DNA of 64,000 nt from a virus (IMGVR_UViG_3300017752_000004:1-64000), one strand, 5' to 3'. Shown: positions 12 to 54,892, counted from the stretch's first letter. Program-made: numbers and translations. Notes: generated by a model from the sequence alone, not told the origin.

Positions 12-461
12 TTGTTTCACAAGGGAGTGAGCTACAACATGGTTAATTTGAAAAAACCAAATCAAAAATGGGACTCTATTGAGGAGTATGCAAAAGAAGA
101 GGCTCCTGATGAAATTCATTTAGTCCCAGAAATCGCTGGTGCTGGAGCGATTGCTGCTGCTGTTGCAGTTTATGCGGTTAGTGCAGTTGCAACTACTTTA
201 GGATTCGCTGCTGTTGGGGGTTTTTTAGTTAACCTTGCTATCGGTTTGTTAATACAAGGCGTTATGACTCTTCTTTTCCCTGTGGAGCTGCCGAAAACAT
301 CGGCTCAGACAACAGAGACAAGGATAGACACTTCTAGTTATATTTTTACAAATTTACAAAACAACGCTATTCAAGGTTTTCCTGTTCCTTTGGTTTATGG
401 GGAGCTGCGGATTGGTTCAAATATAATTGCCACGAACGTTGTTAGCGAGGATCTTGGATAA
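12..461 (+). CDS. Tail assembly protein I-like (lambda gpI family); probably 5'-truncated by the window edge
   Basis: Hydrophobic Ala/Gly-rich segment followed by SYIFTNLQNNAIQGFPVPLVYGELRIGS (gpI/J-type PVP..YG motif); TAATG-coupled to the J gene. Confidence 0.75.
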   Translation: MFHKGVSYNMVNLKKPNQKWDSIEEYAKEEAPDEIHLVPEIAGAGAIAAAVAVYAVSAVATTLGFAAVGGFLVNLAIGLLIQGVMTLLFPVELPKTSAQTTETRIDTSSYIFTNLQNNAIQGFPVPLVYGELRIGSNIIATNVVSEDLG

Positions 462-3400
462 TGAATTACTATAAGAAAATCCTACAACGCAAAAAAGCGA
501 TAACTATCGCTGGTTCAAAAGGAGAGAAGCCTTCTTATTTGATGCCTCCGTCTTCCGCGTTTGGTAAAGTCGGTTTTCAGATTTATGAAGCTTTGGATTT
601 ATTGTGCGAAGGTCCAATTGCTGGATTGGTAGATTATGAGGGTCAAATATTAAACCCAGGTCAGGTTGTTAAAGATTTTTCTAGCAACGAGAATGTTGTT
701 GGATTTTCTGATGGCGGCATAGATAAAGGTATATATTTTGACAATATACCCCTAAGAGAAAGCACTAATAAACCAACTGTATCAAAATATAATTGTATTT
801 TTCGAGACGGTTCGGAATTCCAAACCCGTTCAGAGATATTAGCTACCCCCCAAAGATTGCAAAAATATGGCGCAGCTATTAGAGGCGCTTGGGTAAATGA
901 AAATGGAGCTAGAGATGGTAGCGGTAGTTATGATACTAGAGGTGACCGAGATTTTGTTAATTGGCAAAATTATATACCTAGAGAAGTATTAGAAAAGCCT
1001 TTTTATTATGAAAATTACGACAAGAATGTCAATTTATTAAATATCGGATTGCAGGTTGACGGGTTATTTGATACAAAAAGTTATGCCAATAAATACGAAA
1101 GTTCGGGAGGGAAAAGCAGGCTTGGAACAAATTTGCCCGCCACAGTCACTATTGAAGTGACGGTAGGAAAAATCGACGCATTAGGCGCAGAGCACGAGGT
1201 GTCCTTCGCGTCTTTTACCACTAGAGCTGGCAAAGGAGTGACACTAGGAAAAGCAAACGGAAGAATAGCTATAACTGGAGTTATAACAGCGCCGTACACA
1301 TTTACTTTAGAGGGTATAAGACTCCCTGGTCTATTAGATACGGATGTTAATAGTTTTGTTAGAATCAAAAAACTTGAAGCGGAGACCACTTCCAGTATAG
1401 TAAAAAGAGAAATCGGCGTTAGTAATATTTCCGAAGTGAACTCAGAAACATACCTTTACCCAAATTCGGCTTACGTTGGAACAGCTATTGATTCAAAGTA
1501 TTTTCCTCAAGTCCCTAGTAGAACGTTTAAATTAAAAGGTAAAAAAGTTTTAATCCCAAGTAATTATTTTCCAGTAGATAACCTTTTATACGATAGGAGA
1601 TTTGCTGATGATGATAGTTCTGCTGGAAGAATTATATATGGAGATTTGTATTTTAATAATAAGAGTTCGGGCTCTGACTCTGGTGGAGTTTCGATAAATG
1701 ATGTTGAAGTAATTTTTTTAATAGATACTTCTGGCTCAATGAGTGGAACTCCATTGTCTCAAGTACAAGCATCAATTATTAATTCATTGAACGATTTAGC
1801 ATTGGCAGGGATGTCGGTAGATTCAATAGCTATAGTAGAATATAATTCTAGCGCTACTATAGTCGCTGATTACGGTACTAGCTTACCAGATATGATAACA
1901 GCGGTAAACAATCTTTCTGCTGGTGGCGGCACGAATATGACTTCGGGCTTACAACTAATACAAAACTCTCTTATACTAAGTACAGACAAAGCAAAATATA
2001 TTTTTGCATTAAGTGATGGCGATGTAGGTAGCGCGGCAATTGCCGCTCAGCCTTTAAAAAATGATGGTGTGGTTGTAGCTACTATGGGTATAGGTATATC
2101 ACCAGAAAGTTCCTCGGGTCTAGCTTTAGCTGCTGTCGCTACCCCAGAATATATTTACTGGGTTGATGGAGACATCCCGCCTAATTTTATTATAGATGTT
2201 TTGGGGATTTTTATAATAGGTTTAGGCGAGCGAGATTTAAACGGGACAGAGTTATCATCTAATAGAAATTGGGATGGCACATTTAAATTAGGTTGGACAG
2301 ATAACCCTGCTTGGATTTATTATGATTTATTAATAAACACTAGGTATGGAATAGGATCTTATTTAAGGGATGTCGGCATAGTAGATAAATGGTCATTATA
2401 CCAAATAGGTAGATATTGCGATGCGGTTAATGATAATGGCGAATTTGTAGGCTTAAGCGACGGGTTTGGAGGTTTAGAGCCTAGATTCAGTTGCAATATA
2501 ATGATTAAGGATCAGAATAGCGCTTTTGAAGCTATACAGGATATAGCGCGAACTTTTAGAGCTATGGCTTATTTTAGCAATTCTTTTGTTAATGTAAAAG
2601 TTGACAAGCCTTACTTCAAAGAAGGCAAGCCTAGCCCACAAGGACCACCATCAGAGTTAGAATTTGCGCCTCATTTGATTTTTAATAATTCAAACGTCAA
2701 AGGAGGAGCTTTTGCTTATGCTGATGTAGATAGAAACACAAAACTTTCTGCAGTAGAGGTTTCGTTCTTAGATAAGACTAAAAATTTCACATCAGCAACA
2801 GAATATGTCGAAGACACTGAGGCTATTAAACAAGTTGGGCTGAATTTTAAGCAGTTGGATGGAATTGGCGTCACTTCTAGGGGGCAAGCTCATCGTTTGG
2901 CTAAGTACATACTTTTTGAATCTTTATACACTACAGAAACTGTATCTTTCGGTGCTGGGCTAGAAGCTTTATTGATAGAGCCTGGGGATATTATAAGAGT
3001 TGACGACGAAATGAGAAATTTCAGCAAAAACTTTGGCACAGTAGTTGGCACTAGCGGAACTGTCTCGTATTATAATCCAAATGGATTGGGCGATTATCAA
3101 GAAGGCCCAGCAGCTATTTTGGTGGAACCCGCATTCAAAAGCGATCAATTCGAAAATCTAACTGGCGGAGTTTTAAATATATTTAATCCAATAGACATAA
3201 GCGGAACAGATCAGTTTGATCAATTTCCTGGTAAAATAAACCAAGATCTTTACAAAGAATTAAACAACCCGCAAACTATAAGTTTAAAAATAAACTCTGG
3301 AGGATCTGGCTTTAGTTATCAGCATACAGATAGCGGTGTTTTTATTTTCATAGACGAGCAGGTAACGGGTACGGCAGTTGGCGGTCTAGGCAATGCTCCT

Positions 3401-6100
3401 AGCCAATGGTTCTCTAATGACGAAGCAAACACTGTTTTTGGTTCTTCTTATAGCATAGACGTGAGCGGAAGAGAGCCTAAATATTTTAGAGTACTTGGCA
3501 TTAAAGAAGATGCTGAGATGGGTTACAACGTAACCGCTACGATTCACCACACTGGTAAATTTAAATTTGTAGAAGAAAATACCATTTTTGATGTAAACCC
3601 AGACTCTTTCCAGCCAGATTTAATTACTACCCAGCTAGTTAAACCAAATCCCCCAAGCAGTGTAACCACTGGAGCTTTTTCGCAAAATTTAGATGCATCT
3701 TTGAATTTGTCATTAAGCATTGGCGATCCAGCCACTAAAGTTGGAGACAGGTATGTAGTATTTATCGAGGAGCCGAATACGAATATAGTGGTTGCTGAAT
3801 TTAATAAAAGCGCCACTTCAGTTACAGATGTTGTTTTGTCTGGAGCTGCTAGGATAGATCAAATAGGTTCTTATCAAATTAATGTATTTTCAGAGCTATC
3901 TACATCTACTACAAAAATAAGAAGCGATTTAGCCACAACAACATCTTTTGTTACTGAAGCGGCTGATTTTAATTTTAATTCAGTAACTAATTCTTTTTTA
4001 GACTACAGCGATATTTCTATTAATACTTCATATGAAACCTCTTTTAATAATTTGGAAAACGAAGGTACTGGGCAAGTTTCCTTTATAGAAAACGACAGTG
4101 CGATAAATGCAACTTTTAATTTGTCTTTTGAAGATATTTTTGGCGGCCAAGGGGCTGAAGTTATACAGAGCATATCTGGGCAAGTTATTAATTTGAAGGA
4201 CCATAAGGGTGATTTAATTAAAACAGGTTTTAAACTTTTACAAAAAGAAGAATTTTTCTCTGTTACAAATGAAGAATTAAATATTGCGTTTGGTTATACT
4301 GGGGAAGGCAAGTATAGAATGCCTCCGAATTTGGATTTTGAAGTTGGTAGTTTTTTACTTAGCGGAAGTGGGGATTTAACAACCAATCAATTTATTTCTT
4401 TTGATCAGCCGTTTTCTGGATCTGAATCTCTAGCTGTTTTCACTTCTCAGTTGATAACTGGTGAGTTTGAAAATAACTACGATAAAATAGGCAGAGTTAT
4501 TTCTGCTAGTGGCGGTTTTTATGTTACTGGAACTTCAAGTTCGACCAGTAATCATGTATACATAGCCACTAAAACTGGTAATTTTACATTTGATAATAAA
4601 AAAGATAGAATTGAAGTGGGCATAACAACAAAAAATAATGAATCTGGCTATCGCTTTGTAGAGTTCTCAGAAAATTTTGATTCTATTCCAGAGGTTTTTA
4701 TACAATCACAGGAACCTGAGATTGGCGAAGAGAGTTATTTTTCAGAAACTTCTGTAACTGGGGTATCTGTCAGCGGGTTTTACTTTAACTCTTTTCAGGG
4801 TGATTTATCTCCTGCTAGCGGCACTGGCTCATTTGCATATTTATGCACAAATCAAAATATTTTTAATGTAGCTGATTCTAGTGATTTACCTGTAGGAGTT
4901 CTAAATTATTCTTGTACTGGAGAATCTGATTTTAATTTGAATGTAGACAGTATTTTAGAGCAGTCAAATGGCACAAATAACACTGGATACAGATTTAATA
5001 ACGACCAATACGCTGTTCTTTGCCAGCGATACGGAGATGATGAATTGTTTGAAAATAGCTTTTTTGCAGTTCAATCAACTGGAGATGGAAAGAATAAAGT
5101 TTCCGAGCATGTTTTGCAAACTGGGTCTGATATTGGCGCATCTGGATCTATCATTAATGCCGATTTTCCTGACAACGCTTATAGTTTATTTAATGCTAAC
5201 GGAAATGTAAATCAATTTGTTATAGATGGAGTTAATGATGCAAACGTGACTGGATCTTTCACTTCGAAGCAGATTACCGATGGCACATTGTTATCCTACG
5301 CTGCTGGAGGCGATATCCGCGTTAGTAAAATATACGACCAGTTTGGAAATAAAGACGCTATTCAAGACATCACAGGCATCCAAGGTAAGATAGTAACTGG
5401 TGGATCTATGGTGACCTTGGACGGTAAGCCAGCTTTGGATTTTGTCAGAACAGCTACAGGGCAGAATAATGCTGTTTATTATGAATTTAGCGGAAATAGC
5501 CATATTACTGGAGTAAGCGGTCTTGAGATTTTTGCCACTGTATCTTTTGATACTGTAAATACTACATTAAATCCTTTAGCTTCGTATCAGGGAGATTATA
5601 TTGTCGGAGAGACCAAAAACCTTGCAGTAGGCGACGTGGGCTTTGGAGCTGGCAAAATAGGAGGAACACCTTATCAATACCTATATGAAAAACATGGGTC
5701 GGCTAATGCATTTGGTGGTTTTGATTTCCCTGGAGATGTAACTAAAGACGGTTGGGGCATCACTGGCAATGAAATATCTTATGATACAAAATATGTATTA
5801 AACAGTTTTGTGGGTTTTGATGATTCGGCCGCTTCTGGGTTTAGGGGTATGACTTTTGATGGGTCTTATATATCTGGTTATACAGTGACAGGGCAAAAGA
5901 ATAATATTATTGGTACTATAGGGTCTGATCAAACTCATGATAATAGTTTTGATGGAAAATTTCAAGAAGTCTTGATCTATAAAAACGTTCAACCAAACTC
6001 AAGAGAGAAGATTAGAAAAAACGCACTGTACCGATCAAATGAAGGCTCAACAAACCCGAATTTTAATTTTATACAAATAGGAGTAACTGGAACATTATGA
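461..6100 (+). CDS. Tail tip/central fibre protein (lambda gpJ-like) with inserted VWA domain and C-terminal lectin-like modules
   Basis: gpJ motifs LDLLCEGPIAGL, YPNSAYVG, WDGTFKLGWTDNPAWIYYDLL..RYGIG, YCD...EPRFSCN, GVTSRGQAHRLAKY, LIEPGDIIRVDD; 1879 aa. Confidence 0.9.
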   Translation: MNYYKKILQRKKAITIAGSKGEKPSYLMPPSSAFGKVGFQIYEALDLLCEGPIAGLVDYEGQILNPGQVVKDFSSNENVVGFSDGGIDKGIYFDNIPLRESTNKPTVSKYNCIFRDGSEFQTRSEILATPQRLQKYGAAIRGAWVNENGARDGSGSYDTRGDRDFVNWQNYIPREVLEKPFYYENYDKNVNLLNIGLQVDGLFDTKSYANKYESSGGKSRLGTNLPATVTIEVTVGKIDALGAEHEVSFASFTTRAGKGVTLGKANGRIAITGVITAPYTFTLEGIRLPGLLDTDVNSFVRIKKLEAETTSSIVKREIGVSNISEVNSETYLYPNSAYVGTAIDSKYFPQVPSRTFKLKGKKVLIPSNYFPVDNLLYDRRFADDDSSAGRIIYGDLYFNNKSSGSDSGGVSINDVEVIFLIDTSGSMSGTPLSQVQASIINSLNDLALAGMSVDSIAIVEYNSSATIVADYGTSLPDMITAVNNLSAGGGTNMTSGLQLIQNSLILSTDKAKYIFALSDGDVGSAAIAAQPLKNDGVVVATMGIGISPESSSGLALAAVATPEYIYWVDGDIPPNFIIDVLGIFIIGLGERDLNGTELSSNRNWDGTFKLGWTDNPAWIYYDLLINTRYGIGSYLRDVGIVDKWSLYQIGRYCDAVNDNGEFVGLSDGFGGLEPRFSCNIMIKDQNSAFEAIQDIARTFRAMAYFSNSFVNVKVDKPYFKEGKPSPQGPPSELEFAPHLIFNNSNVKGGAFAYADVDRNTKLSAVEVSFLDKTKNFTSATEYVEDTEAIKQVGLNFKQLDGIGVTSRGQAHRLAKYILFESLYTTETVSFGAGLEALLIEPGDIIRVDDEMRNFSKNFGTVVGTSGTVSYYNPNGLGDYQEGPAAILVEPAFKSDQFENLTGGVLNIFNPIDISGTDQFDQFPGKINQDLYKELNNPQTISLKINSGGSGFSYQHTDSGVFIFIDEQVTGTAVGGLGNAPSQWFSNDEANTVFGSSYSIDVSGREPKYFRVLGIKEDAEMGYNVTATIHHTGKFKFVEENTIFDVNPDSFQPDLITTQLVKPNPPSSVTTGAFSQNLDASLNLSLSIGDPATKVGDRYVVFIEEPNTNIVVAEFNKSATSVTDVVLSGAARIDQIGSYQINVFSELSTSTTKIRSDLATTTSFVTEAADFNFNSVTNSFLDYSDISINTSYETSFNNLENEGTGQVSFIENDSAINATFNLSFEDIFGGQGAEVIQSISGQVINLKDHKGDLIKTGFKLLQKEEFFSVTNEELNIAFGYTGEGKYRMPPNLDFEVGSFLLSGSGDLTTNQFISFDQPFSGSESLAVFTSQLITGEFENNYDKIGRVISASGGFYVTGTSSSTSNHVYIATKTGNFTFDNKKDRIEVGITTKNNESGYRFVEFSENFDSIPEVFIQSQEPEIGEESYFSETSVTGVSVSGFYFNSFQGDLSPASGTGSFAYLCTNQNIFNVADSSDLPVGVLNYSCTGESDFNLNVDSILEQSNGTNNTGYRFNNDQYAVLCQRYGDDELFENSFFAVQSTGDGKNKVSEHVLQTGSDIGASGSIINADFPDNAYSLFNANGNVNQFVIDGVNDANVTGSFTSKQITDGTLLSYAAGGDIRVSKIYDQFGNKDAIQDITGIQGKIVTGGSMVTLDGKPALDFVRTATGQNNAVYYEFSGNSHITGVSGLEIFATVSFDTVNTTLNPLASYQGDYIVGETKNLAVGDVGFGAGKIGGTPYQYLYEKHGSANAFGGFDFPGDVTKDGWGITGNEISYDTKYVLNSFVGFDDSAASGFRGMTFDGSYISGYTVTGQKNNIIGTIGSDQTHDNSFDGKFQEVLIYKNVQPNSREKIRKNALYRSNEGSTNPNFNFIQIGVTGTL
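1700..2220 (+). other. von Willebrand factor A (VWA) domain inserted in gpJ
   Basis: Complete MIDAS: VIFLIDTSGSM (DxSxS) ... GGGTNM (T) ... IFALSDG (D). Confidence 0.9.
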
Positions 6101-6990
6101 GGTTTAATGAAACAATAATTGGTCTTCACCCAGCATCGTCTGGGTACGAGCTTGAATGCTTCGTGCAGAACAACCAAGACTCAGATTTCTTGAGTGGATC
6201 TGGCTCGTTCTTAGTCGAATTCCCTAAGTTTACTGTTACTGGGCTTGAATTTAGAGGGCAAAATATAGTTTTTGAGCCCACTGGGGCAGACTTGCAGTTG
6301 ATGTCCGATATAGAGGTAATTGAAGACTTAATTGAATTGAGATGCTTCTTTTCTGGAGATTTAAATGGGGTGACTGGGCTCGCTAAAGAGAACATAAAAC
6401 TACTAGATGTCTTCACTGGGGACTATGCCGAATTTCAGCCAGACGTAATTGGTTTAACAAATTATGTCAAAGGCGGCTCTGTTAATGTAGATAAAAATGA
6501 TCAATTTATAACCTTTAATGTACTCGATTTAGATATACAAACTGGGGTGCAGAATATATTCTACAAAGTTATTCCGCTGGATTACTTAACTTTTGGGGAG
6601 TCTTCAGATGAGGCAAGTGGAATACTGTTTACTGGTTTCGACTCTTTTACCACTATAACAGAAACCGAGGCTATTATTGACAGATCTAATGCAAATGATT
6701 TAAGATTTTCTGCTAATGCTGGCATTATCGATATTTTCACAGGCACTAATATTGTTTTAACGGAAAATATACCTTTAGATTTCTCAGCTTCGTTTAGAGT
6801 TAGAACGACCTCAGAGCCGATTTCTATTTCACAAAGCGGAGGAGCGACACTACGAAGCAGCTCTTCCTCTTTCCCAGTTAGTGCTGGCGTTGTTACAATT
6901 CCCGCTGGAAATGAATTAGGAGAATTTTCAATCGATTCTTTATTGGACGTAAATGGGCAAAGAGAGGCTTACATTATATCTGAGCTGTAA
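6097..6990 (+). CDS. Hypothetical, probably tail-associated acidic beta-rich protein
   Basis: ATGA overlap with J; 297 aa; rich in S/T-G dipeptides like the other tail proteins. Confidence 0.6.
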   Translation: MRFNETIIGLHPASSGYELECFVQNNQDSDFLSGSGSFLVEFPKFTVTGLEFRGQNIVFEPTGADLQLMSDIEVIEDLIELRCFFSGDLNGVTGLAKENIKLLDVFTGDYAEFQPDVIGLTNYVKGGSVNVDKNDQFITFNVLDLDIQTGVQNIFYKVIPLDYLTFGESSDEASGILFTGFDSFTTITETEAIIDRSNANDLRFSANAGIIDIFTGTNIVLTENIPLDFSASFRVRTTSEPISISQSGGATLRSSSSSFPVSAGVVTIPAGNELGEFSIDSLLDVNGQREAYIISEL

Positions 6991-7448
6991 AACATATCTG
7001 CCTCTAATTTGAAGCCATTTTTTTTATAAAATTTTTCTATCTTAGGATTTTTCTCGCTATTGCCTACTAAAATTATTTCAAATTTGTATATATTTTTTAT
7101 ACACTCTAAACTTTTTTTAAATAATTTAATGCCATAGCCTTTTGTCTTGGGGTCGGATACCCACATATATTCTTGTATAATTTTTTTATTAACTCTAGCG
7201 TCATAAGTTTTTAGCCATACTATATAACTAACTAATTCGCCATTAACAAAGTATCCGAAACAAAAACAATCTTTAAATCTTTGCGGGTTAGAAAAATAAG
7301 AGGTAATAGAATACAAGTTCACTTCACATCCAAAATGAGTATGCTTGCCTATTTTAGCATACATTTCTTCTGTTATCGAAACTAAGTCTTCTATTACCTC
7401 TATTTTATAGAGGCCGTTTTTTAAACCAGCTTTAGGAGTTTCCGACAT
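6969..7448 (-). CDS. GNAT-family acetyltransferase
   Basis: WVSDPKTKGYGIKLF (motif A) and NPKIEKFYKKNGFK (motif B); start uncertain. Confidence 0.65.
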   Translation of the reverse strand: MSETPKAGLKNGLYKIEVIEDLVSITEEMYAKIGKHTHFGCEVNLYSITSYFSNPQRFKDCFCFGYFVNGELVSYIVWLKTYDARVNKKIIQEYMWVSDPKTKGYGIKLFKKSLECIKNIYKFEIILVGNSEKNPKIEKFYKKNGFKLEADMFYSSDIM

Positions 7449-8179
7449 TCTTTCGCTGGGACATCTTTGTAATCTTTCCAGGTCTTGATGACTTCTGGAT
7501 CGTTCTCGTATTTACCGTCCGCATAAAGCTTACGCAGCTTAGTTAGAAAAGAATTGAAGTCTGTACCTACTTTCTCTTTTAAAATGCCTTGTGGGCTAAT
7601 ATCCTTCGCTCCAGAGGATGACGGCGGAGTTACGATAGGAGCTTTATTATTAGACGAGTCAATTTCGTCCGCTCCGACAATGTAAATGCCCAAGAAATTA
7701 CGGACAGCACGAACAAAAGCGCGATTTTCTGCAATGCATTCTAAAAACTTTGCAGCAAAACCATTTGTATTGCGAAGTGTGGCGTTAGCAACGGAGGAGG
7801 ACTTCGCACCATGACTACCGAAAGGTTGTGTTGGGTTTTCATAATTGCAAATAAAAGTGATCACGCACTTGACGACAGATCTCTCTTCGGAAGACTCAAC
7901 AACGTCATAATCAACAGCGTCTATACCCCTAAGCTTCGCAAGCTCTTTAATCCCACTAAGCTTAATTAAAAGTTGGTTATCTTCTAGCCCTTCAATAGAT
8001 TCTGGGACGGGCATCTTGCGCATCTCAAAGTGGTCTTTGTTTGGGTATAGGTGTTCTGGACTAATCATAGCTCGCCAGTTGACGGAGCCATCTTTATTGA
8101 ATTTGTAATCAACAGACTCTAGGAGTCCATGTTCGTCGCGCTTCCAGAGATCTGGGCCGTATAATTTATTATTCTTCAT
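7421..8179 (-). CDS. Hypothetical, possibly Rad52/Sak-like ssDNA-annealing protein
   Basis: AENRAFVRAVRNFLGI helix after a beta-rich segment resembles phage annealase cores (weak). Confidence 0.4.
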   Translation of the reverse strand: MKNNKLYGPDLWKRDEHGLLESVDYKFNKDGSVNWRAMISPEHLYPNKDHFEMRKMPVPESIEGLEDNQLLIKLSGIKELAKLRGIDAVDYDVVESSEERSVVKCVITFICNYENPTQPFGSHGAKSSSVANATLRNTNGFAAKFLECIAENRAFVRAVRNFLGIYIVGADEIDSSNNKAPIVTPPSSSGAKDISPQGILKEKVGTDFNSFLTKLRKLYADGKYENDPEVIKTWKDYKDVPAKECRKLLKLV

Positions 8180-11832: not shown

Positions 11833-11884
11833 TTGCACTATTATATAGCTAACTACAGCAAATTCTATAAACTTAACTACATAA

Positions 11885-13027: not shown

Positions 13028-13042
13028 GACAATATTATACAC

Positions 13043-27220: not shown

Positions 27221-27221
27221 A

Positions 27222-28034: not shown

Positions 28035-28045
28035 ATCAACGTATA

Positions 28046-43913: not shown

Positions 43914-46900
43914 TTATTTTTTATATAAGTAGTTTAATGTCCCGCCAGTTCTGGATTCCTCTTGAACAACCGTGGTAACCGCTGCCTTGACTTTCTGCGC
44001 AAAATCGCGCTGTTGGTCGTCATCGCCTTTTTCGCCCGCTTGCTCTGCCTTGCCACCTTGAATATTAAAAGTAAAGTCAGAAGTGTTTGTGACCTGAGAT
44101 GCAGAATTGGACGCAGTCCCAGCCTCGACAGAAACAGGGCTAACAACGCCACCGTTCTGAAATCCTCGCATTGGCATAACGCCCTCATTTATGCTTGATA
44201 AAAAACCAGATCCATATTTCTCGACCGCAGATTTTTTCATAACAAATTCCCCAGGAGTTAACATAGCTGGTATGGTATCGGTTGGGCCAACTGATCCGCC
44301 ATTAGCAAATCCCACTGGACCTCCATTTGCAAAACCAAAACCAAAAGCACTTAATGCCATCTTAGCAATTCCGCCAATTCCCCCGCCGCCGCCGCTATCT
44401 CCAGAGAAGAAGCTGCCCAAATTAGTGGTAAGTCCTTTAAAAATAGTACCAAGCCCATCTTTTAATTTTCCAAACAAATCGCCAAATGTGGTTTTCAACC
44501 CTCTAAAAGATTCCATCAGGGTGTCTTTGAGTTTTGAAAAAATTCCTTCGCCCTTTCCTTCTCCAGCTAAAGCATCAACTGGATTAGTGGCCGAAGCAGA
44601 GCTTACTGTATATATTGGATTGCCAGCAGTGCCATCTGGAGAAGCTGCGCCGCTTTTGCCTCCAAACAGGCTTTTTACTCCTCCTAATATACCGCCGTCT
44701 GATTCTGCAGACCCGCCACCAAACAAGCCTCCTTTGCCTTCCGAACTCCCAAACAATGCAGATGTAGCTTGGTCTGCTGCTTGCTGCAAAAATGCATCTT
44801 TTATAAACCCTAAAAAGTTTCTTCCAGCATCGGACAAAGCCTCATCTAAAGTTTTTGCCTGGCTGACCGCTTCCTGAAGAGCTGACCCCAAGTTGCTAGA
44901 AAATTGTGCTGGTATATTTTCGCCCAACTCATCACGAAAGAAAGCTATATCGTTCTCTAAATTACCAAGACCCTTCCTTATTCCTCCGCCAAATCCTTGC
45001 GGTTTACTAAGGTCATTTATTTTCTGTTGTAATTTTACTTCTTCGAGCTTGTTGTCCAATATTTTCTCTTGAATTAATGCCTTCTCTACAGCGAGGTCAA
45101 AATCTATTTTGGCGTCTTTAGTTAGTTCTATGCCAGCTTCGACAAGCCCCTTTTCAATTAAAAGTAAGCTAGATCCTGCCTCAACCTGGCCCTCTATAAA
45201 TTCTTTCTGCTCTTCAGAAAAAATAGTAGCATCTCTGATTGATTTTACGTAGTCTTCTGTGATTCTGAATTCTTCTTTAGCTTTTTCTACGAGAAATTTC
45301 TTTAAAGCTATCTCATTTTCTAGACCTACTTTTCTTATTGTTGTGGCAGCTTCAGCTAAATCAAGTTCTTTGTTTCTTATCTCGGATAAAGCTCCGCTTT
45401 GAAATATAGTCTCTATTTGTCCAGTCTTCGTAGATTCTAACTGCTTTGTTGTATCAAACCCACCAGCCGCAAATCTTCCTTGACCTAATCTGTCTTTAAA
45501 ATCTTTTTTTGCCTTACCTCCTGTAAAAGCGCCTTCGCCAAAACCAGCTGCAACTTTTAGCGCTGTATCGGCGGCTTTTTCGGCGGCGGCATCAATAAGA
45601 TCAATCGCCTTGATCATGTTTTCGGCAAACAGATCCGCATCAAACTGCTTGACGGTTTCGGTTTTGATTTGTATTCCAGTTCCTGTCCTAATTTTTACGT
45701 CTTTTTGACTCGCGTTTACTATGTCTTGCAAAGCGTTTTTGTCTCCAACCTTTGCCAAAGACGCACTTAATGTGCTTTTATCTTTTATGCCGCCAAAAAA
45801 CCCTTTATTAATTCCAGTTAATCCACCTAACTGTTCTTCGAGCAAGTCTTCTATACTTTTCTTTTTATCCTCCTCAATGCCTAATTTTTCTTTAAGCTCT
45901 GCTTGTTTCTGAGCCGCCTTTAAGTCGGCGACAAATGCCGACCTTAAAGCTGAGGAAGCTTCTTTTGACCCAGACGACAATTCTCCCAGATCAATATTTT
46001 TGAGTTCTTCGTTTAGTTTTTCAAATCCTGTTTTTGTTTTTGTTAACTCTAAAACTAATGGAGCTAAGACAGTGCCAATTGCAACTGCAGTACCGATGCC
46101 AGGAAGCGCACCACCAACTCCAGCTATACCTCTGCCTAATTTACCTTTAGCTCCTACGAGTTTACCCTCTGAGTATTTCATTGGATTCCCCGTCTTCGGA
46201 CTACGATATGTAGCCAACTCTACTCCAAAGCTACTCAACTTAGCCCCAATCTTTTCCACTGGCCCTTTCAATAAAGTGAGCGAGGTTAGAGCAGAAGCAG
46301 CAAAAGCTATTTCACTAATAAATTTGCCAATACCACCTTCTGCAGTACTGAACGCACTGCTCAAGAAATAAAGCCCAGTAGAAGCAGCTAAAATCCCACC
46401 ACCAAGGCCCCCATCAGAAGAACCTCCTGGCGTTGCTGGCGTCGATCTTCCTCCAGAAGCGAAATTTGGAATAGCCCCAGTTGGCTCATCTCTGGTATTT
46501 GTAACAGCAAGACCCATTGGGTTTTGCGAGTTACGTAGTTTGCCGCTTTGATTAATTCTTATTTGGTTTATTGGAAGACCAGCAGCTTGCTCTCTTGCGA
46601 CTGCTTCGTCTAAAGCTCCGCCAGCAAAATTTGGGATATAACCTCCAGCAGCGTTACCTGTGTCCTTCAACACCTTATCAAACATGCTCTTTTTGCTGTC
46701 TGGACTGAGTCTTATCTTAGCTTCTATTTGTGTGGCTTTTCCCAATTGTGGAAAAAGTTTTTTTAATTGCGAATTTGCATTACTTCCAGAAAAATCAAAA
46801 GCAGCAATTTCGGACCTTGAATCAAAATCCTTTGAAGATAATAAAGAGCTGACCGCTGTTTCAAAAATAGTTCCAGACAAAGCTGATATTGCTCCAGAAT

Positions 46901-49175
46901 TTGCTAATTTTAAAATTTTATCTGCTTTAGGTGGGCCGCCCATTAGTTTTGCCTGTTGATTTGCTAAACCCAATGCAAATTTTCTAGTAGATTGATCTAA
47001 CTGCTCGTCATTTTTAACCCTAGAATCAACACCAGGCTCATAGCCAACCAGATCAAAAGCTACTTTCTTGCCTTTTCTGATTCCTTGTATTTGTTGCTTA
47101 GGCCCCAAAACTTGTGGAACTACCATAGCAAAACGAGGATTGTATATAAGTTTTTGAGAAGATTTTTGTTTTTCTCTTTTTTCTAATTCTGATTTAGCTG
47201 CAAGAGCTTCTGGACCCCGACCCTTTGCTATACCCCTCAACCTTTCCAAGCTTCTTGGTGCAGCAAAATTCGGAATAAACCCACCAGCAGCATTCAACTT
47301 CTTAGCTCCAGCAGGAAGACCCATAGTCTTAACCATATCCTGATTAAATATAGCATCTCCACCTCCAGCGTAATTTGGCACAACGTATTCGCTGGTATTA
47401 GCAACCATCGTCCCGCGCTTGCCGCCACCAAAAGCAAAATTAGGAATTGAAACAACCTTAGCGCTGGACGGTGCGCCACCCACCCCGCGAGAAACATCAT
47501 TGGCTTCTGCAGCTATGTATCCACCAGCAGCTCTTTTCCCCTTCGGAGCAACGCCCTCAGATCCTCCCCTTAGCCCAGCGCCAAACAATCCAGGAGTCAC
47601 TACTGCTGCAGCTTTTTGAACTCTAGCTAAAGCGGCAGCTTGTTGATTATAAATTTTTAAAAGTAATTGTTCTTGGGCAACCTTATTACCCTCAAGAGCT
47701 AAAATCTCTCTTTGGATACTTTCGTTTTGAAAAAGAGTCTGCAAAACAGATTGTTGCAAAGCATTCTGTTGCTGCACTGACTTATTAATACCAAGCAAAC
47801 TAGCCAGAGAAGATGCGCCAAATTTAGCTAAGTCTACAAATAGTTTTATAAATATACCGCCAATAAGAGCCAGACCAGGTACTGTTAAAACCCCACCGAT
47901 TCCCCTAACTATGCCTTGGGCAAACTTAGCACCAAGAGATTCTCCTTGTAAAAGGTCAGTGATTCCGTTGACAACAGAACTAAAAAATTCCAGTATATCC
48001 CCTACTTTGTCTGTAAAACCAAGTTCACCCAAAACGGACGCTAACTTTTGCCCACCTACAACCAAGTTATTTATTAAGGCTTCCAGGGTTTGATTGAGTG
48101 AGCTGTTTTTCGAATCCAATGCTCCAGCAGCGGTCGCTGAAGTTTGTAAAGCTTTTGTAAATTGGCTTTGGTTTGAATTTAAATCCTCAACCAAACTAAT
48201 TAAAATATCTCTCTGGCGAACACCAGCGACCTTTTGAATAATATCCCCAGCCTCAACGCTTTTTAATCCAAGCTTGTTTAGTTCTACAGCTAACTCTTGG
48301 AACAGTGGGATAGCTGATTTAACATTGCCCTGAGCATCCAAAACATTAATACCTAGGTCTTCTAGTGCAACCAGAGTATCTGTCCTACCTAGTCTAGCAA
48401 AAATTGTTTTAAACGCATTACCAATAACAGCGCCACCACGTTGAGTTCTTTCCTGTACCGTCGTAACAACAGCCAAAAGCTCGTCAAAGGAAACACCAGC
48501 TACACGAGCAGATGCCGACGCTCGCTCAAGACCATTAATTAAATCTTCAGTAGATACAGCAAATTTTGTATCAACTTCCGATAGCTTGTCGCCAATAGCG
48601 GCAACGGTTAAGCCAGCACCTTCGAAACCCTTGATAGCTGCAGTTAAACCAGCGACCGCTTGCTCTGAGCTAACCCCAGCGACACGAACAAGCTTCAAGG
48701 CTGTCTCTACTCTAGAAAGAGATTCTTCGACACTCAAGCCTTGACGAGCTAATTCAAGAGCGCCCTCAGCCACATCATCGAATGACGTGGCCGTTTTCTG
48801 GGCTACAGCAAAAATGCCATTACCAAATTGCTGTAATTGTTTTTCAGTGCCGCCAAGAATGGTGTTGATTTTAGCAAAGGTAGCTTCTACTTTAATTGTG
48901 TTTGCAACAAGAGCGCCAAATGCTTGAGAAAGCTTGTTTATGACAGCCACAGAAGCGCCGAAAGCCAAAACACGAGCATTGGAAGCTTCCAAAGATTTTT
49001 GGAATTCTGTAGCCTGCCCTGTTATCTTTCCCAATGGCCGCGATAGTTTTTCGAGCGATCTGGCTCCACCGCCAAAATCAACACCTTTAGCCTTGGATTG
49101 TATTCTAGCCAATGCCGCATCGACCTTGGAAGTCACTACTGGATCAAACTCTACTGGTATTCTTGCCTTTGCCAT
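43914..49175 (-). CDS. Tail tape measure protein (TP901-type core)
   Basis: ELARQGL...L..VD..FAVS..DL..GL.R.AS.A..AGVSFDEL......ERTQRGG.VIGNAFKTIFARL; C-terminal GPTDTIPAMLTPGEFVM; 1753 aa. Confidence 0.92.
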   Translation of the reverse strand: MAKARIPVEFDPVVTSKVDAALARIQSKAKGVDFGGGARSLEKLSRPLGKITGQATEFQKSLEASNARVLAFGASVAVINKLSQAFGALVANTIKVEATFAKINTILGGTEKQLQQFGNGIFAVAQKTATSFDDVAEGALELARQGLSVEESLSRVETALKLVRVAGVSSEQAVAGLTAAIKGFEGAGLTVAAIGDKLSEVDTKFAVSTEDLINGLERASASARVAGVSFDELLAVVTTVQERTQRGGAVIGNAFKTIFARLGRTDTLVALEDLGINVLDAQGNVKSAIPLFQELAVELNKLGLKSVEAGDIIQKVAGVRQRDILISLVEDLNSNQSQFTKALQTSATAAGALDSKNSSLNQTLEALINNLVVGGQKLASVLGELGFTDKVGDILEFFSSVVNGITDLLQGESLGAKFAQGIVRGIGGVLTVPGLALIGGIFIKLFVDLAKFGASSLASLLGINKSVQQQNALQQSVLQTLFQNESIQREILALEGNKVAQEQLLLKIYNQQAAALARVQKAAAVVTPGLFGAGLRGGSEGVAPKGKRAAGGYIAAEANDVSRGVGGAPSSAKVVSIPNFAFGGGKRGTMVANTSEYVVPNYAGGGDAIFNQDMVKTMGLPAGAKKLNAAGGFIPNFAAPRSLERLRGIAKGRGPEALAAKSELEKREKQKSSQKLIYNPRFAMVVPQVLGPKQQIQGIRKGKKVAFDLVGYEPGVDSRVKNDEQLDQSTRKFALGLANQQAKLMGGPPKADKILKLANSGAISALSGTIFETAVSSLLSSKDFDSRSEIAAFDFSGSNANSQLKKLFPQLGKATQIEAKIRLSPDSKKSMFDKVLKDTGNAAGGYIPNFAGGALDEAVAREQAAGLPINQIRINQSGKLRNSQNPMGLAVTNTRDEPTGAIPNFASGGRSTPATPGGSSDGGLGGGILAASTGLYFLSSAFSTAEGGIGKFISEIAFAASALTSLTLLKGPVEKIGAKLSSFGVELATYRSPKTGNPMKYSEGKLVGAKGKLGRGIAGVGGALPGIGTAVAIGTVLAPLVLELTKTKTGFEKLNEELKNIDLGELSSGSKEASSALRSAFVADLKAAQKQAELKEKLGIEEDKKKSIEDLLEEQLGGLTGINKGFFGGIKDKSTLSASLAKVGDKNALQDIVNASQKDVKIRTGTGIQIKTETVKQFDADLFAENMIKAIDLIDAAAEKAADTALKVAAGFGEGAFTGGKAKKDFKDRLGQGRFAAGGFDTTKQLESTKTGQIETIFQSGALSEIRNKELDLAEAATTIRKVGLENEIALKKFLVEKAKEEFRITEDYVKSIRDATIFSEEQKEFIEGQVEAGSSLLLIEKGLVEAGIELTKDAKIDFDLAVEKALIQEKILDNKLEEVKLQQKINDLSKPQGFGGGIRKGLGNLENDIAFFRDELGENIPAQFSSNLGSALQEAVSQAKTLDEALSDAGRNFLGFIKDAFLQQAADQATSALFGSSEGKGGLFGGGSAESDGGILGGVKSLFGGKSGAASPDGTAGNPIYTVSSASATNPVDALAGEGKGEGIFSKLKDTLMESFRGLKTTFGDLFGKLKDGLGTIFKGLTTNLGSFFSGDSGGGGGIGGIAKMALSAFGFGFANGGPVGFANGGSVGPTDTIPAMLTPGEFVMKKSAVEKYGSGFLSSINEGVMPMRGFQNGGVVSPVSVEAGTASNSASQVTNTSDFTFNIQGGKAEQAGEKGDDDQQRDFAQKVKAAVTTVVQEESRTGGTLNYLYKK

Positions 49176-51234: not shown

Positions 51235-51693
51235 ATGGCCATCTCTCTAATATCAGACTCACAAAAAAACACAATCAAAGCTATAATAGATGATATCCAC
51301 GAAACCTTTGCCAGAAATATCACAGTATACGAAGAGGGCGAAAAAATCTTAATCGCCGCTAGTCCCGAATTTAATGGAATTTACAGCAGAACTTCGAGCG
51401 GCCAGAAAACCACGAGCAAGGTGATCGTATCCCACACGCTTAATGTAAGAATTAAATATATCAACGCGAAAGAGCAAGGGGTCTCAGATTCAAAAATAAG
51501 AAGCCAGTTAGGCGTAGACCTAATAGCTGGGTCAGTAAGAATCACTGTAGATTTAGCTGGATTTGAAATAATGAAAAAAGCAAAAAGCTGCGAGTTTGAA
51601 GGAAGAAAATATACAATAAATAGCAAAGGCAACCCAACTGGAATGTTTGGCCCTCAATACTATCAGTTTTACCTATCCCCGATTGAAGATTAA
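51235..51693 (+). CDS. Head-closure/adaptor-like neck protein
   Basis: DIHETFAR.I.V, EFEGRKYTI...P.G.F; position before neck and tail genes; start MAISL. Confidence 0.55.
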   Translation: MAISLISDSQKNTIKAIIDDIHETFARNITVYEEGEKILIAASPEFNGIYSRTSSGQKTTSKVIVSHTLNVRIKYINAKEQGVSDSKIRSQLGVDLIAGSVRITVDLAGFEIMKKAKSCEFEGRKYTINSKGNPTGMFGPQYYQFYLSPIED

Positions 51694-52277
51694 TGGCTTT
51701 AGATCCTAATATAATAAATAGCCTAACAAAACAAATCCCGAGCCTGGCTAGGCCACAAGCTGATAAGCGGTTTAGGGCGGCATTCCAAAGAGTTAAAAAC
51801 GAAATGATTGCGGAATTTCTCAATCATCCAGTCACCATAGAAATAAAAGGGGGGATTGAGGCTAAAAATTTAAGCGGTACATTGGACAATATCACAAATC
51901 TTTTTTCGTTTATAGGGTTCGACAGTGCGTCTGACCCGACAGGCGACATAGAAAGTATGCTGTACAAAACAGAGTTCAAGTTTGATAGGTACACGAACAA
52001 ATCAATAGAATACTCTGTGTATATGCCAGACGCGAAGGAGATTTTTGCGGCAACCCCCATGCCTTGGGCCTCTGGAAGAAGCTGGGCGAAAGGGATTGAA
52101 ACAGGAATCTCTGGTTTGGGCTACTACCTAAAAGTAGATAGAGAAAACAGTAGATCTGGATTAGGCATTCAATCGTCACGCAAAACAAGAAAAAAAGGTG
52201 TAAAGTTTAATAACATATCCTACATATCTGCATTAATAAAAAAATATAAAATTAAATTTCAAAATCTAGAAATATGA
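51693..52277 (+). CDS. Neck/tail completion protein (HK97 gp10-like by position)
   Basis: Basic 194-aa protein, TAATG-coupled. Confidence 0.45.
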   Translation: MALDPNIINSLTKQIPSLARPQADKRFRAAFQRVKNEMIAEFLNHPVTIEIKGGIEAKNLSGTLDNITNLFSFIGFDSASDPTGDIESMLYKTEFKFDRYTNKSIEYSVYMPDAKEIFAATPMPWASGRSWAKGIETGISGLGYYLKVDRENSRSGLGIQSSRKTRKKGVKFNNISYISALIKKYKIKFQNLEI

Positions 52278-53165: not shown

Positions 53166-54296
53166 ATGGCTAAAAATAGAGTTATTTATCAATCCGACGC
53201 GCTGTTCGCCAGCCAAACAGTAAATTCTACTGGAAGCAACGAACACGCCCAACTTCGCAGAGTACAATCTGCTAATTATTCATTCAATATCACACGACAA
53301 GATATTAACCAATTTGGTCAGCTTTCAAGAATTGAGTCTATCATTCTTGAGTCACCCACAGTGTCGTTCGATACATCTTATTATCTTGGAGACGGCTACA
53401 ACGAACAAGGTCTCGCATTCAAAAATGGTTCTAACTTTGATGCTGGTTTTGTTTCTGGCCAAATCTCTTCAACAAGCGGTCAGAATCTTTATATTTTGAC
53501 AGCCCCAGAAGGCGTAGATGCTAATTTCAACACGACGTCCAGCAACTACAGCACAATCGGCATAGGTAATGCGTTTCTAACAGACTACTCCCTTGAAGCG
53601 TCTGTAGGTGGCATCCCAACCGTTAGTGTTTCTCTTGAAGGCACAAACATGAACGCCACTGCCGATATCTCTGGTTCTTCAGCTGGTTTCTCTGGAATCT
53701 CTGGTGCTGGTATTGACCCAGAAGCAGGAACAGTTCTCCCGTCTCAAAGTTCTGGTGTAAGATTCCCAGCAGCTTCTGAAGGTACTGGAGCAGCTATCCC
53801 TTCTGCTCTTCGCCCAGGAGATATTAGCCTATCTTTTGCAAATGCAGATAACAGCACTATTGTTAATCTAGATGGCGCAGGTAGCGCTCACGTACAAAGT
53901 ATTTCAATGAGCATCCCTCTTGGAAGAACGCCGATTGACAGACTTGGAACTCGTTTCTCGTTTGCTCGTGTCGTTGATTTTCCAATCACACCGACCATCT
54001 CCGTTTCTGCTATTGTTTCTGAGACTCAAACTAGAGCTTTGACTGACATCATTAATAATGATGCATTTATCTCTGACCTTCAGTTCACATTCAAAGATTC
54101 AAATAGTGTCCCTAGAGCATCTTATAAAATGACAAATCTTAAGCTTGATAGCGAATCATTTAGTTCGAGCATCGGTCCAAATAAGACTGTTGATCTTTCG
54201 TTCTCGCTTTCAGTTGGTGGACCAGCCGATACCGTTAATAACATCTTCTTCTCTGGATCAAACACTAGCACAGTTCTTGGTAACCCTGCTTCTTAA
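53166..54296 (+). CDS. Major tail tube protein (internally duplicated)
   Basis: High-expression codon use, own promoter and terminator, two tube-like repeats. Confidence 0.75.
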   Translation: MAKNRVIYQSDALFASQTVNSTGSNEHAQLRRVQSANYSFNITRQDINQFGQLSRIESIILESPTVSFDTSYYLGDGYNEQGLAFKNGSNFDAGFVSGQISSTSGQNLYILTAPEGVDANFNTTSSNYSTIGIGNAFLTDYSLEASVGGIPTVSVSLEGTNMNATADISGSSAGFSGISGAGIDPEAGTVLPSQSSGVRFPAASEGTGAAIPSALRPGDISLSFANADNSTIVNLDGAGSAHVQSISMSIPLGRTPIDRLGTRFSFARVVDFPITPTISVSAIVSETQTRALTDIINNDAFISDLQFTFKDSNSVPRASYKMTNLKLDSESFSSSIGPNKTVDLSFSLSVGGPADTVNNIFFSGSNTSTVLGNPAS

Positions 54297-54384: not shown

Positions 54385-54392
54385 ATGCCCAC

Positions 54393-54423
54393 AAAAAAGC
54401 GCAACCCCTTTCGAGGTCACGCT
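54393..54423 (-). terminator. Intrinsic terminator of the leftward head operon
   Basis: Minus strand AGCGUGACCUC-GAAA-GGGGUUGCGCU-UUUUU. Confidence 0.8.
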
Positions 54424-54448
54424 ATCAGAGTTAGGCTCTGAGGTAAAT

Positions 54449-54892
54449 CTACAAAGATTCAATACCGCCAACCTGCCTTGGGCCAGCCTGGAAACTATTG
54501 TAATTAGCAGCTAAGTCCTGCAGCTCGTTGTAGGCATCTTGAGCAAGAGTTTTGTATACTTTGGACACTTCGTTCTTATTGATAAAGGTAATAGAGTTGT
54601 CGCCATCCTTAACGCTTAGAATATTGCCGTTTGTATCGTTAGCGATACCACGAATAGTGCTGCGTGTCTGCTTTGTATAATAATGATACAAATACATCTG
54701 CTTGTATACGGATTGTTCTTCTAGGTAAAGGCCAGAAACATCCCCACTTACTCCAGAAAAACTAGTGTATAACACATTATTGAGTTGGCCTATATTGCTA
54801 TCTAGCCACCCAGAAATAGATTCAACTGTTACTCCAGTCGAATCAAATTCGTTTATATATATAGAAGTTGCTAAATTGCCGATATTACTCAT
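54449..54892 (-). CDS. Head-tail connector-like structural protein
   Basis: 147 aa, helical; downstream of capsid; GTGTAA 9 nt upstream. Confidence 0.55.
   Translation of the reverse strand: MSNIGNLATSIYINEFDSTGVTVESISGWLDSNIGQLNNVLYTSFSGVSGDVSGLYLEEQSVYKQMYLYHYYTKQTRSTIRGIANDTNGNILSVKDGDNSITFINKNEVSKVYKTLAQDAYNELQDLAANYNSFQAGPRQVGGIESL

Follow-up and report, generated by a model that had tools for sequence, protein, structure and literature searches.

A predicted two-part glycan-building system, with a conserved glycosyltransferase cassette and a hypervariable sugar island, in an uncultured marine siphovirus family

Which molecule would be decorated by the sugar genes of the viral stretch IMGVR_UViG_3300017752_000004:1-64000 (64,000 bases, analysed as a whole and called the window below)? 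An initial annotation had proposed that its perosamine pathway and its glycosyltransferase (GT) genes form a virion-glycosylation system, with the Ser/Thr-Gly dipeptides (S/T-G) of the tail proteins as the O-glycosylation sequon. Judged from gene content, the phage family to which the window belongs appears to carry a real two-part glycan-building system, made of a conserved GT cassette beside the tail gene J and a separate hypervariable sugar island. This glycan system is more striking than first described, and the sequon idea was not supported.

Conserved cassette and hypervariable island

The source of the window is an uncultured marine siphovirus family whose complete genomes are about 135 kb; most of the family contigs are fragments, and the open reading frames (ORFs) of relatives were called by a plain longest-ORF rule. 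The first part of the proposed system would be the cassette beside J, with its genes in the near-invariant order o155, GT4a, (DUF6165), GT9-like, o252, (GNAT), together with a second core GT4 gene located elsewhere (GT4b; coordinates in Table 1). Among 80 GT4a loci, 79 have the GT9-like gene next to GT4a, 79 contain o252 and 74 show o155 in the adjacent position. The cassette was also found in all four close loci of ORF3, the virion protein gene that follows J, and it adjoins J in convergent orientation in 7/7 long genomes; in the G018 and G022 types S/T-G-rich fibre genes, not replication genes, bracket it. GT4a, the GT9-like gene, GT4b, Gmd, o252 and o155 belong to the core: every one of the six long relatives that cover the region has them (identity in six relatives is 52-74% for GT4a and 51-76% for GT4b). 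The core GTs are conserved to the same degree as the replication genes. With the GT cassette in the core, the search of the family gave no relative that lacks GTs.

The GT4 and GT9 genes named in the initial annotation stand in part. GT4a belongs to Glycos_transf_1 by its PF00534 score, GT4b is recognised by phrog_2170 with no Pfam match, and the GT9-like protein stays under the Pfam cut-off. The best NCBIfam match of the latter is the lipopolysaccharide (LPS) core heptosyltransferase RfaQ (E 1.9e-5), and its AF2 model has a pLDDT of 82. Foldseek aligns ~190 of its 375 residues, at a query-normalised TM of 0.32-0.33, with the GT9 structure 3tov, WaaF 1psw, WaaC 2h1h and TibC 4rb4; the combination of a PF01075 gathering score and both GT-B domains aligned, by which GT9 membership was judged, is thus absent. 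The same fold search was considered as a discriminator of acceptors and rejected, as protein-acting and LPS-acting relatives were not separated. At the outer end of the cassette, the GNAT-like acetyltransferase scores under the cut-off of PF13508.

Pfam and PDB searches gave no match for o155, and neither Pfam, PHROG and PDB searches nor tblastn against a cultured-phage collection gave one for o252; profile searches of both proteins against PDB and Pfam yielded nothing above chance. The Pfam-bearing atlas clusters nearest to o252 contain Sak/Rad52-type annealing and ExoX-like proteins at scores of 0.88-0.90, which is the range of chance, and o252 may therefore be a protein of DNA metabolism and not of glycosylation. 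Another core gene (13301-14797, minus strand), placed immediately upstream of the kinase-like gene and of the cassette, encodes a ClpB-like AAA+ protein with Clp_N, AAA and AAA_lid_9 domains, whose length is about 800 aa in G016-type relatives.

The second part would be an island of nucleotide-sugar enzymes, GTs and tailoring enzymes between the DUF5824 gene and Gmd, located between the ribonucleotide reductase (RNR) and RecA genes. Islands were anchored on the DUF5824 gene, which gave 46 loci with a usable DUF5824-to-Gmd interval; clusters were built at 35% identity and Pfam matches were counted at E 1e-6 or better. The 46 loci hold 204 proteins in 140 clusters, and the 37 closed islands, with 0-10 genes each, show 28 distinct gene sets. 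Different islands are found even in loci with anchor proteins that are ~90% identical. A Pfam match was obtained for 80 of the 140 cluster representatives and a GT family for 25 (the families seen in islands being GT2, GT4, GT6, GT10, GT11, GT15, GT25, GT32-type, GT47, Anp1, CAP59 and WavE). About 44 further representatives, by hand tally, are either sugar-nucleotide enzymes (GMER-like epimerase, UDP-galactopyranose mutase, UDP-GlcNAc 2-epimerase, NeuB, CMP-transferases, PseB-like dehydratase, DegT and RmlC) or tailoring enzymes (formyl-, methyl- and sulfotransferases and LicD). As many as 189 of the 204 island proteins are without a hydrophobic segment, and two or more segments occur only in SemiSWEETs. 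No protein with four or more hydrophobic segments was found in the complete genomes G016 and G018, and no flippase, polymerase, ligase or polyprenyl-phosphate GT family was found by Pfam among the 140 island representatives; the multi-pass membrane proteins by which a Wzx/Wzy- or Gtr-type surface polysaccharide system would be recognised are thus missing from these sets. One island (L148) contains, oddly for a glycan island, a RuBisCO-large-chain-like protein (5386-6573, plus strand; PF00016 E 2.8e-35), accompanied by an IMPDH/GMP-reductase-like protein and a nucleotidyl transferase (1846-2901 and 3734-4480).

In the window, the island genes Per, GNAT, GT-A-like (o270) and SemiSWEET predict, with Gmd, a GDP-N-acetylperosamine-type donor made from GDP-mannose. 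Gmd matches PF16363 over its full length in two stretches, and its TIGR01472 score (304.8 bits, cut-off 415) falls under the threshold because an intein splits the protein (TIGR01445 26.3 bits, cut-off 24.5, with LAGLIDADG_3). The aminotransferase finds its best PDB matches in the perosamine synthetases 3bn1, 3dr7 and 3dr4 (E 1e-82 to 8e-82), which places it with Per, and its best NCBIfam model, LegC, is under the cut-off. For the acetyltransferase at 28046-28468 generic GNAT membership was found, and we infer GDP-perosamine as its substrate from its position between Per and Gmd. The SemiSWEET-like protein scores 30.6 bits against NF037968 (cut-off 80) and displays two hydrophobic segments in a crude hydrophobicity scan, a SemiSWEET being defined as one PQ-loop unit of about 85 aa with three membrane helices. 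The GT-A gene of the initial annotation, o270, had no Pfam match; a protein language-model atlas leads to GT-A clan clusters (score 0.97, 10/10) and is the one line of evidence for this probable fold. Per, GNAT (28046-28468) and o270 are accessory, occurring in only a few family members. For gmd, per and GNAT within 25136-29792 the family models and PDB matches agree with the initial annotation, its SemiSWEET is a PQ-loop protein by PF04193, and its reading of Gmd, Per and acetyltransferase as a predicted pathway to a GDP-N-acetylperosamine-type sugar, alongside several GTs, holds on these gene identities. As to the intein, it is inserted after about residue 180 of Gmd, and inteins with LAGLIDADG homing-endonuclease domains occur in two genes of the window, Gmd and the large terminase (61245-63998), both on the minus strand; in some relatives (L166, L171) Gmd consists of two adjacent ORFs.

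In such a system the core GTs would initiate the glycan and the island GTs would add a strain-specific outer part. With soluble enzymes throughout, and a flippase, polymerase and ligase all missing from the complete relatives, synthesis would proceed stepwise in the cytoplasm, directly on the acceptor.

Ser/Thr-Gly dipeptides of the tail proteins

S/T-G statistics were obtained for the 57 ORFs of the window with 2000 shuffles each, correcting for the composition of each protein. The excess survives this correction in four of the 57 ORFs (z of at least 3.3), namely J (53 observed vs 32.1 expected, z 4.3), ORF3 (13 of 26 Gly preceded by S/T, 4.6 expected, z 4.5), the leucine-rich repeat (LRR) protein (34 vs 20.7, z 3.5) and the neck/tail protein at 51693-52277 (6 vs 1.9, z 3.3). 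It is marginal in the proteins at 38866-39996 (9 vs 4.6, z 2.3) and 54449-54892 (5 vs 2.4, z 1.95), and no excess is seen in the tape measure (23 vs 28.7), in the putative tube (9 vs 8.1) or in the putative capsid protein (0 vs 3.4), the last two being labelled by position only. The initial annotation described tail and neck proteins in general as S/T-G-rich; the tube and the tape measure are not enriched, despite the strings that were quoted. The recount agrees with its 13 of 26 Gly in ORF3, all of those strings are present and its major capsid protein, putative by position, indeed contains no S/T-G. The excess of J lies entirely within residues 861-1879, with none in the conserved core 601-860 (2.7 expected), and hydrophobic residues are 1.57-fold enriched at position -1 of S/T-G sites. 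The repeat consensus accounts for 16 of the 34 sites of the LRR protein (LTGLD x13, VTGM x3). Taking six tail proteins together, and leaving aside the LRR repeat words, T-G gives the strongest signal (observed/expected, O/E, 2.46), S-G stands at 1.41 and N-G is depleted (0.56).

J was then compared with the best 120 of 3985 protein-search matches, which comprise 61 family homologues and 59 distant environmental J-like proteins. The median S/T-G O/E is 1.73 in the family homologues, the excess being the same in seven long relatives, and among the distant proteins it is 1.57 for the 46 most distant and 1.92 for the other 13. The GT cassette seems to be shared by all these lineages. The J proteins of nine cultured phages range from 0.83 to 1.48. 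When the residue before Gly is considered separately, the cultured J proteins show an O/E of 1.47 for S-G, 1.63 for N-G, 1.64 for D-G and 0.84 for T-G, compared to 1.54, 0.84, 1.47 and 1.95 respectively in the family. The S-G excess is thus general, and therefore the family-specific feature is T replacing N before Gly. Indeed, S-G reaches an O/E of 1.86 in J of lambda, a phage without annotated GT and the only one of the nine cultured phages whose GT content was looked at. Furthermore, the tail or fibre proteins of low-GC marine cultured phages show S/T-G values of 1.57 (P-SSP7 gp17), 1.88 (HTVC010P tail22) and 2.05 (HTVC010P gp30). GT absence in lambda, P-SSP7 and HTVC010P is by annotation, with many ORFs hypothetical; on this basis the excess is also present where no GTs are encoded.

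Among 56 J orthologues (41-84% identity), the S/T of the sites is kept in 62.7% vs 48.1% for other S/T (site-level p 0.0065) and the Gly in 71.7% vs 51.9% for other Gly (site-level p 0.004), which implies that the motif is under selection. The commonest replacements of S/T are N (148 cells) and D (139 cells), and together these two make up 34% of the replacements at S/T-G sites vs 19% at other S/T. N and D cannot be O-glycosylated. The pattern of replacement therefore points to a turn-forming residue and not to a sugar acceptor; an irreplaceable hydroxyl, for which S/T exchange only would be seen, is not what the sites show. In the ORF3 alignment as well, Gly is invariant at several sites where S/T varies to A, N or D. 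Mapping of the sites onto a structure, as the initial annotation had proposed, gave a partial answer for ORF3: the model has a mean pLDDT of 53.4, with residues 1-190 mostly under 50 and good quality only for about 190-297, so that 11 of the 13 sites are unplaceable and the two in the confident part are both found in 4-residue hairpin loops. The C-terminal domain of ORF3 (181-297) resembles the capsid spike of phage Pa223 (Z 11.0) and a KP1 baseplate protein (Z 8.7).

Among relatives, the highest S/T-G scores belong to repeat fibres with the dipeptide in the repeat unit. One fibre protein of the relative G007 (L112:4917-6434, plus strand, 505 aa) is built from some 15 coiled-coil repeats of 21 residues each that are nearly identical (…ALQTATGDLDSRVASNDSDIG…). 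Pseudomonas phage YA3, a cultured temperate phage and the best tblastn match of the fibre repeat, was considered as a control and rejected, since the match lies in a non-tail ORF and is a SAASNTG nonapeptide repeat without relation to the fibre. That ORF (L301:33925-35274, minus strand) has about 30 SAASNTGxx nonapeptide repeats, with 28 T-G observed vs 3.6 expected, and it illustrates that an extreme T-G excess can come from a simple repeat. In a second lineage (L200-L213), a shorter DUF5824 relative of the anchor lies between portal-side and head genes, not beside RNR (e.g. L205:10001-10471), and large neighbouring ORFs are S/T-G-rich and N-G-poor (e.g. 87 observed vs 40.4 expected). PF00534 and PF00535 gave no match in five sister-lineage contigs with S/T-G-rich tail ORFs, a result that is uninformative as these contigs are only 19-36% complete. 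Avoidance of N-G against deamidation in long-lived virions was considered as well and rejected as a general cause, since the head proteins keep N-G (O/E 1.22, compared to 0.73 in tail proteins).

The S/T-G excess is a genuine and conserved feature that is confined to tail proteins, and by itself it is no pointer to glycosylation. Its best reading is a beta-turn motif of fibre-type domains, with T-G in the place of the N-G of other phages. Three observations sit poorly with a turn motif alone: the constraint on S/T-G is stronger than on other S/T or Gly, the T-G excess is not seen in the nine cultured J proteins, and at the level of clades the T-G excess co-occurs with the GT cassette. According to the full earlier reading, hydrophobic-S/T-G at exposed turns would be the acceptor motif of the core GTs, and the tail tip and fibres would bear a phage-made O-glycan coat started by the GT4/GT9-like cassette and extended by island glycans. 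This we hold to be improbable. The excess that J, ORF3, the LRR protein and 51693-52277 keep after composition correction, its family-wide extent in the 61 homologues, the conservation of the sites with the hydrophobic residue at -1, the unenriched T-G of cultured J proteins and the presence of TibC, a protein O-heptosyltransferase, among the fold matches of the GT9-like protein are all compatible with it. On the other side, S-G is equally enriched in cultured J proteins, including that of lambda, GT-unannotated marine phages reach comparable tail and fibre values, N and D are the commonest replacements, nearly half of the LRR sites belong to the repeat consensus, the LPS enzymes WaaC and WaaF score as well as TibC does, and no GT-less relative is on hand as a co-occurrence contrast. 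The sequon claim of the initial annotation is thus not supported. If it were true after all, extension specified by each island, with fucose, perosamine, nonulosonic acids, methyl, sulfate or phosphocholine groups, would give the virions of each strain a glycan code of their own, in the manner of the fibrils of giant viruses. More generally, a dipeptide excess in fibre proteins needs controls from GT-less phages before a sequon is claimed.

Candidate acceptors of the glycan

Among the possible acceptors, for which the initial annotation had named host surface and DNA as alternatives, we place the tail and fibre proteins of the phage first, as a tentative choice with somewhat less than an even chance. 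This is suggested by the convergent position of the cassette beside J in the seven long genomes and its bracketing by fibre genes in the G018 and G022 types, by core GTs that match the replication genes in conservation, by the lack of any DNA-acceptor-making enzyme in the relatives searched and by one island with a weak MptE-like (DUF115) domain beside a CMP-transferase. Moreover, a fixed start with variable extension through soluble stepwise synthesis is the logic of known cytoplasmic protein O-glycosylation. Several observations weigh against tail proteins as the acceptor. In most loci the cassette comes straight after the kinase-like, ClpB-like and Pol III genes and is read in their direction, and of the 57 loci that could be evaluated no more than 30 have a recognisable J within 6 genes of its other side; the cassette thus ends a replication operon and its place beside J may be a mere module boundary. 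GT4b (SSB/Hsp20), the island (RNR/RecA) and the cassette all lie in DNA-metabolism surroundings, the GT9-like, GT25 and WavE families are typical of LPS or lipooligosaccharide (LOS) core synthesis, and capsid and tube, which are the targets of glycosylation in mycobacteriophages, show no S/T-G excess here.

Remodelling of the host envelope is a possible but more doubtful explanation. The core GT9-like, GT4 and kinase-like proteins and the island GTs would act on the host lipid A-core at the cytoplasmic face, host MsbA and Lpt would export the product, and the changed surface of the latent period would block superinfection or re-adsorption of the progeny. The RfaQ match of the GT9-like protein, the GT25, WavE, GT4 and GT2 families of the islands, the early/replication orientation of the genes and the membrane SemiSWEET are consistent with this, and since LOS-type synthesis needs no Wzx, Wzy or WaaL, their absence fits as well. 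All similarities to LPS enzymes are, however, under curated cut-offs, the phage genes provide neither a lipid-linked nor a membrane step, and the core GTs are conserved although the hosts of the family are probably diverse, given the inconsistent host leads. We know of no experimentally shown case of LOS remodelling by a lytic phage. The same interpretation has been proposed for the GT-rich hypervariable host-recognition clusters of pelagimyophages and cyanomyophages (PMC7029224).

DNA hypermodification, in which the GTs would add strain-specific glycans to a hydroxylated base and protect the phage DNA from host nucleases, is very unlikely, even though the glycosylation genes lie among those of Pol III, SSB, dNMP kinase, RNR, ThyX and RecA. 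LPS-related phage GTs, including heptose-transferring ones, are reported to glycosylate 5-hydroxymethylcytosine (bioRxiv 10.1101/2023.12.21.572611), and poly-arabosylated 5-hydroxycytosine with phage sugar-nucleotide genes is known (PMC13326640). The clusters described there share with our phages LPS-like GTs, sugar-nucleotide genes in replication regions and diverse glycans; they are defined by a methyltransferase with a 5mYOX dioxygenase or by a ThyA homologue, none of which was found here. Indeed, the ThyA-type synthase (PF00303), the C5-methyltransferase (PF00145) and Tet/JBP (PF12851, for which the search control was silent) were each found in 0/5 relatives, which for ThyA includes 0/2 complete genomes, and the three families are absent from the 129 scanned ORFs of the complete genome G018. 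The enzymes by which DNA glycosylation would be recognised, a ThyA homologue or a methyltransferase with Tet/JBP, are thus missing from the genomes searched, for Tet/JBP only provisionally in view of the silent control. Furthermore, the islands hold sulfotransferases, LicD, nonulosonic-acid genes and fucosyltransferases, which to our knowledge are not known in DNA glycans. What probability remains is left to some other acceptor, and that of the sequon is included in the share given to the virion.

Comparison with known systems sets the predicted one apart. Cytoplasmic O-glycosylation of adhesins and flagellins is carried out by the GT4 proteins GtfA/B on serine-rich repeat proteins, by Maf/FlmG and by the autotransporter heptosyltransferases TibC/Aah. 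As in these systems, a conserved soluble initiating GT-B enzyme and variable extending GTs would act in the cytoplasm on a surface protein that is folded or rich in S/T, and nonulosonic-acid genes are a shared feature, here in the hypervariable islands; unlike them, no sequence-level membership was found, TibC being matched no better than WaaC/WaaF, and no S/T-rich low-complexity acceptor region is seen. The O-antigen GDP-perosamine pathway has the same Gmd and Per-like aminotransferase, here 1.2 kb apart with an acetyltransferase between, but in the window it is phage-encoded, its Gmd contains an intein, its GNAT-type acetyltransferase has a predicted substrate, and Per, GNAT and o270 are the accessory genes noted above. 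In mycobacteriophages, glycans are reported at the C-termini of capsid and tail-tube subunits (PMC12619734). Those siphoviruses likewise have phage GTs outside the structural operon and an O-linked virion glycan (here proposed). They differ in that capsid and tube, neither with motif excess here, are the glycosylated proteins, whereas the present system is a predicted one, and in that the family described here brings nucleotide-sugar pathways of its own as well as the hypervariable island. The host recognition clusters of pelagimyophages and cyanomyophages are also marine and combine tail-fibre and GT/LPS-type genes in a hypervariable region; they belong to T4-like myoviruses, with GTs mixed among fibre genes and GT8 the commonest (PMC7029224). 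By contrast, the phages described here are siphoviruses; their core cassette beside J is fixed, and their variable island is separate, sharply bounded and located in the replication module beside Gmd. New with respect to known systems are thus the siphovirus family with a fixed GT cassette, the diverse and sharply bounded island next to Gmd and the phage's own perosamine branch.

If the glycans are on virions, phage-encoded virion glycosylation would no longer be limited to a few mycobacteriophages but reach a widespread group of marine phages, and the islands, with their 140 protein clusters in 46 loci, would be a sharply bounded natural library of glycan pathways. Should the host envelope carry them, the family would offer a clean model of how lytic phages control superinfection. 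In both cases the fixed island borders (DUF5824 and Gmd) ease recovery from metagenomes and expression.

The window and its phage family

The window corresponds to bases 1-64000 of a 73,134-base IMG/VR virus record with a CheckV completeness of 53%; its GC content is 33-44%, it has 0 tRNAs, and the 57 non-nested ORFs used here were retained from 96 called (features in Table 1). Pfam and PHROGs profiles of the genes are of siphovirus type. The lambda-like I and J genes at 3-6100 lie on the plus strand, and a minus-strand replication and nucleotide block encodes a ClpB-like ATPase, Pol III alpha, an exonuclease, a primase, DnaB, a RecA-like protein, RNR and ThyX. It is followed by a short plus-strand block (dNMP kinase, sigma-like protein, SSB and Hsp20) and by tail, head and packaging genes at 38866-63998, including the DUF285 LRR tail protein, the tape measure and the intein-bearing large terminase.

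Table 1. Features of the window discussed in the text, with positions counted from its first base
Feature	Position	Strand	Basis
Tail assembly protein I, 5' cut by contig end	3..461	+	phrog_32 E 6.4e-24
J-like central tail fibre / host specificity protein, 1879 aa, with von Willebrand factor A (VWA) domain	461..6100	+	phrog_31 E 8.2e-108, PF13550, PF00092
ORF3, post-J virion protein	6097..6990	+	S/T-G count; C-terminal structure matches
GNAT-like acetyltransferase, outer end of core cassette	6969..7448	-	phrog_1249 E 8.2e-7, position in relatives
o252, core cassette protein	7421..8179	-	nearest atlas clusters 96-100% viral; 79/80 loci
GT9-like glycosyltransferase (weak), core cassette	8169..9296	-	PF01075 20.7 bits, cut-off 22
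DUF6165 protein, in part of family and within some islands	9280..9780	-	PF19662 E 4.5e-8
GT4a, 562-aa GT-B glycosyltransferase, core cassette	9683..11371	-	PF00534 27.7 bits (cut-off 26.4), phrog_2170 E 2.5e-20
o155, most conserved cassette protein	11371..11838	-	54-83% identity in relatives
APH/CcrZ-like kinase-fold protein (weak)	11885..13042	-	NF046102 and NF033068, E about 3e-4
GDP-mannose 4,6-dehydratase (Gmd) with intein, conserved right border of sugar island	25136..27220	-	PF16363 E 1.2e-97, TIGR01472, intein models
o270, probable GT-A fold glycosyltransferase, island gene	27222..28034	-	language-model lead
GNAT N-acetyltransferase, island gene	28046..28468	-	PF00583 E 2.1e-9
GDP-perosamine synthase-like DegT aminotransferase (Per), island gene	28465..29538	-	PF01041 E 3.5e-101
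SemiSWEET / PQ-loop membrane protein, island gene	29535..29792	-	PF04193 40 bits, cut-off 22
ThyX, accessory gene within island interval	29777..30454	-	TIGR02170 180.7 bits, cut-off 87.9
DUF5824 protein, conserved left border of sugar island	30678..31562	-	PF19141 E 5.5e-9; 594 relatives in IMG/VR
GT4b, second core GT-B-like glycosyltransferase, between SSB and Hsp20	36916..38004	+	phrog_2170 E 1e-14
Tail protein	38866..39996	-	adjoins LRR and tape-measure genes
Minor-tail / DUF285 LRR protein	40005..43913	-	PF03382 E 4.6e-229
Tape measure protein	43914..49175	-	PF10145, phrog_4211
Neck/tail protein	51693..52277	+	no family match
Putative tail tube protein, by position only	53166..54296	+	no family match
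Neck protein with FSGVSGDVSG	54449..54892	-	string present
Putative major capsid protein, by position only	55625..56743	-	441 relatives

The phage family is a large one: a relative of the capsid-like protein is encoded in 441 of 448 candidate IMG/VR stretches, although Pfam, PHROG and PDB sequence searches gave no match for the protein itself, whose identity is thus unconfirmed by sequence; relatives of GT4a were found in at least 586 IMG/VR stretches. Two relatives are rated complete (139,990 and 133,831 bases, the latter with terminal repeats). Against the cultured-phage collection, megablast with 12.8 kb and tblastn with the capsid-like protein gave no match, and the matches of GT4a were limited to S-CBS4 and S-EIVl (22-23% identity). 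Within that collection, from which records close to the window may be absent, the family thus lacks a cultured relative. The literature searched contains no description of this phage family, of its island or of a phage S/T-G sequon.

The host labels of the genome contigs conflict (Patescibacteria, Gammaproteobacteria, Cellvibrionales, Rhodospirillales and Verrucomicrobiales metagenome-assembled genomes, MAGs), and for this reason no host assignment was made. Near one end of a 210,818-base Cellvibrionales MAG contig (JAYQMT010000004.1, L296) there is a relative of the capsid-like protein with 56% identity, which could be a host lead or a binning error.

Two of the tail proteins have a noteworthy domain make-up. 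In J, a VWA domain at residues 417-545 (PF00092 E 5.7e-15) precedes the conserved core; it is present in some J proteins of the family, and a Laminin_G_3 or H-type lectin domain is found instead in others. The LRR protein (1302 aa) combines a minor-tail-protein-like N-terminus (weak PF05939) with 12 DUF285/BspA-type LRR stretches.

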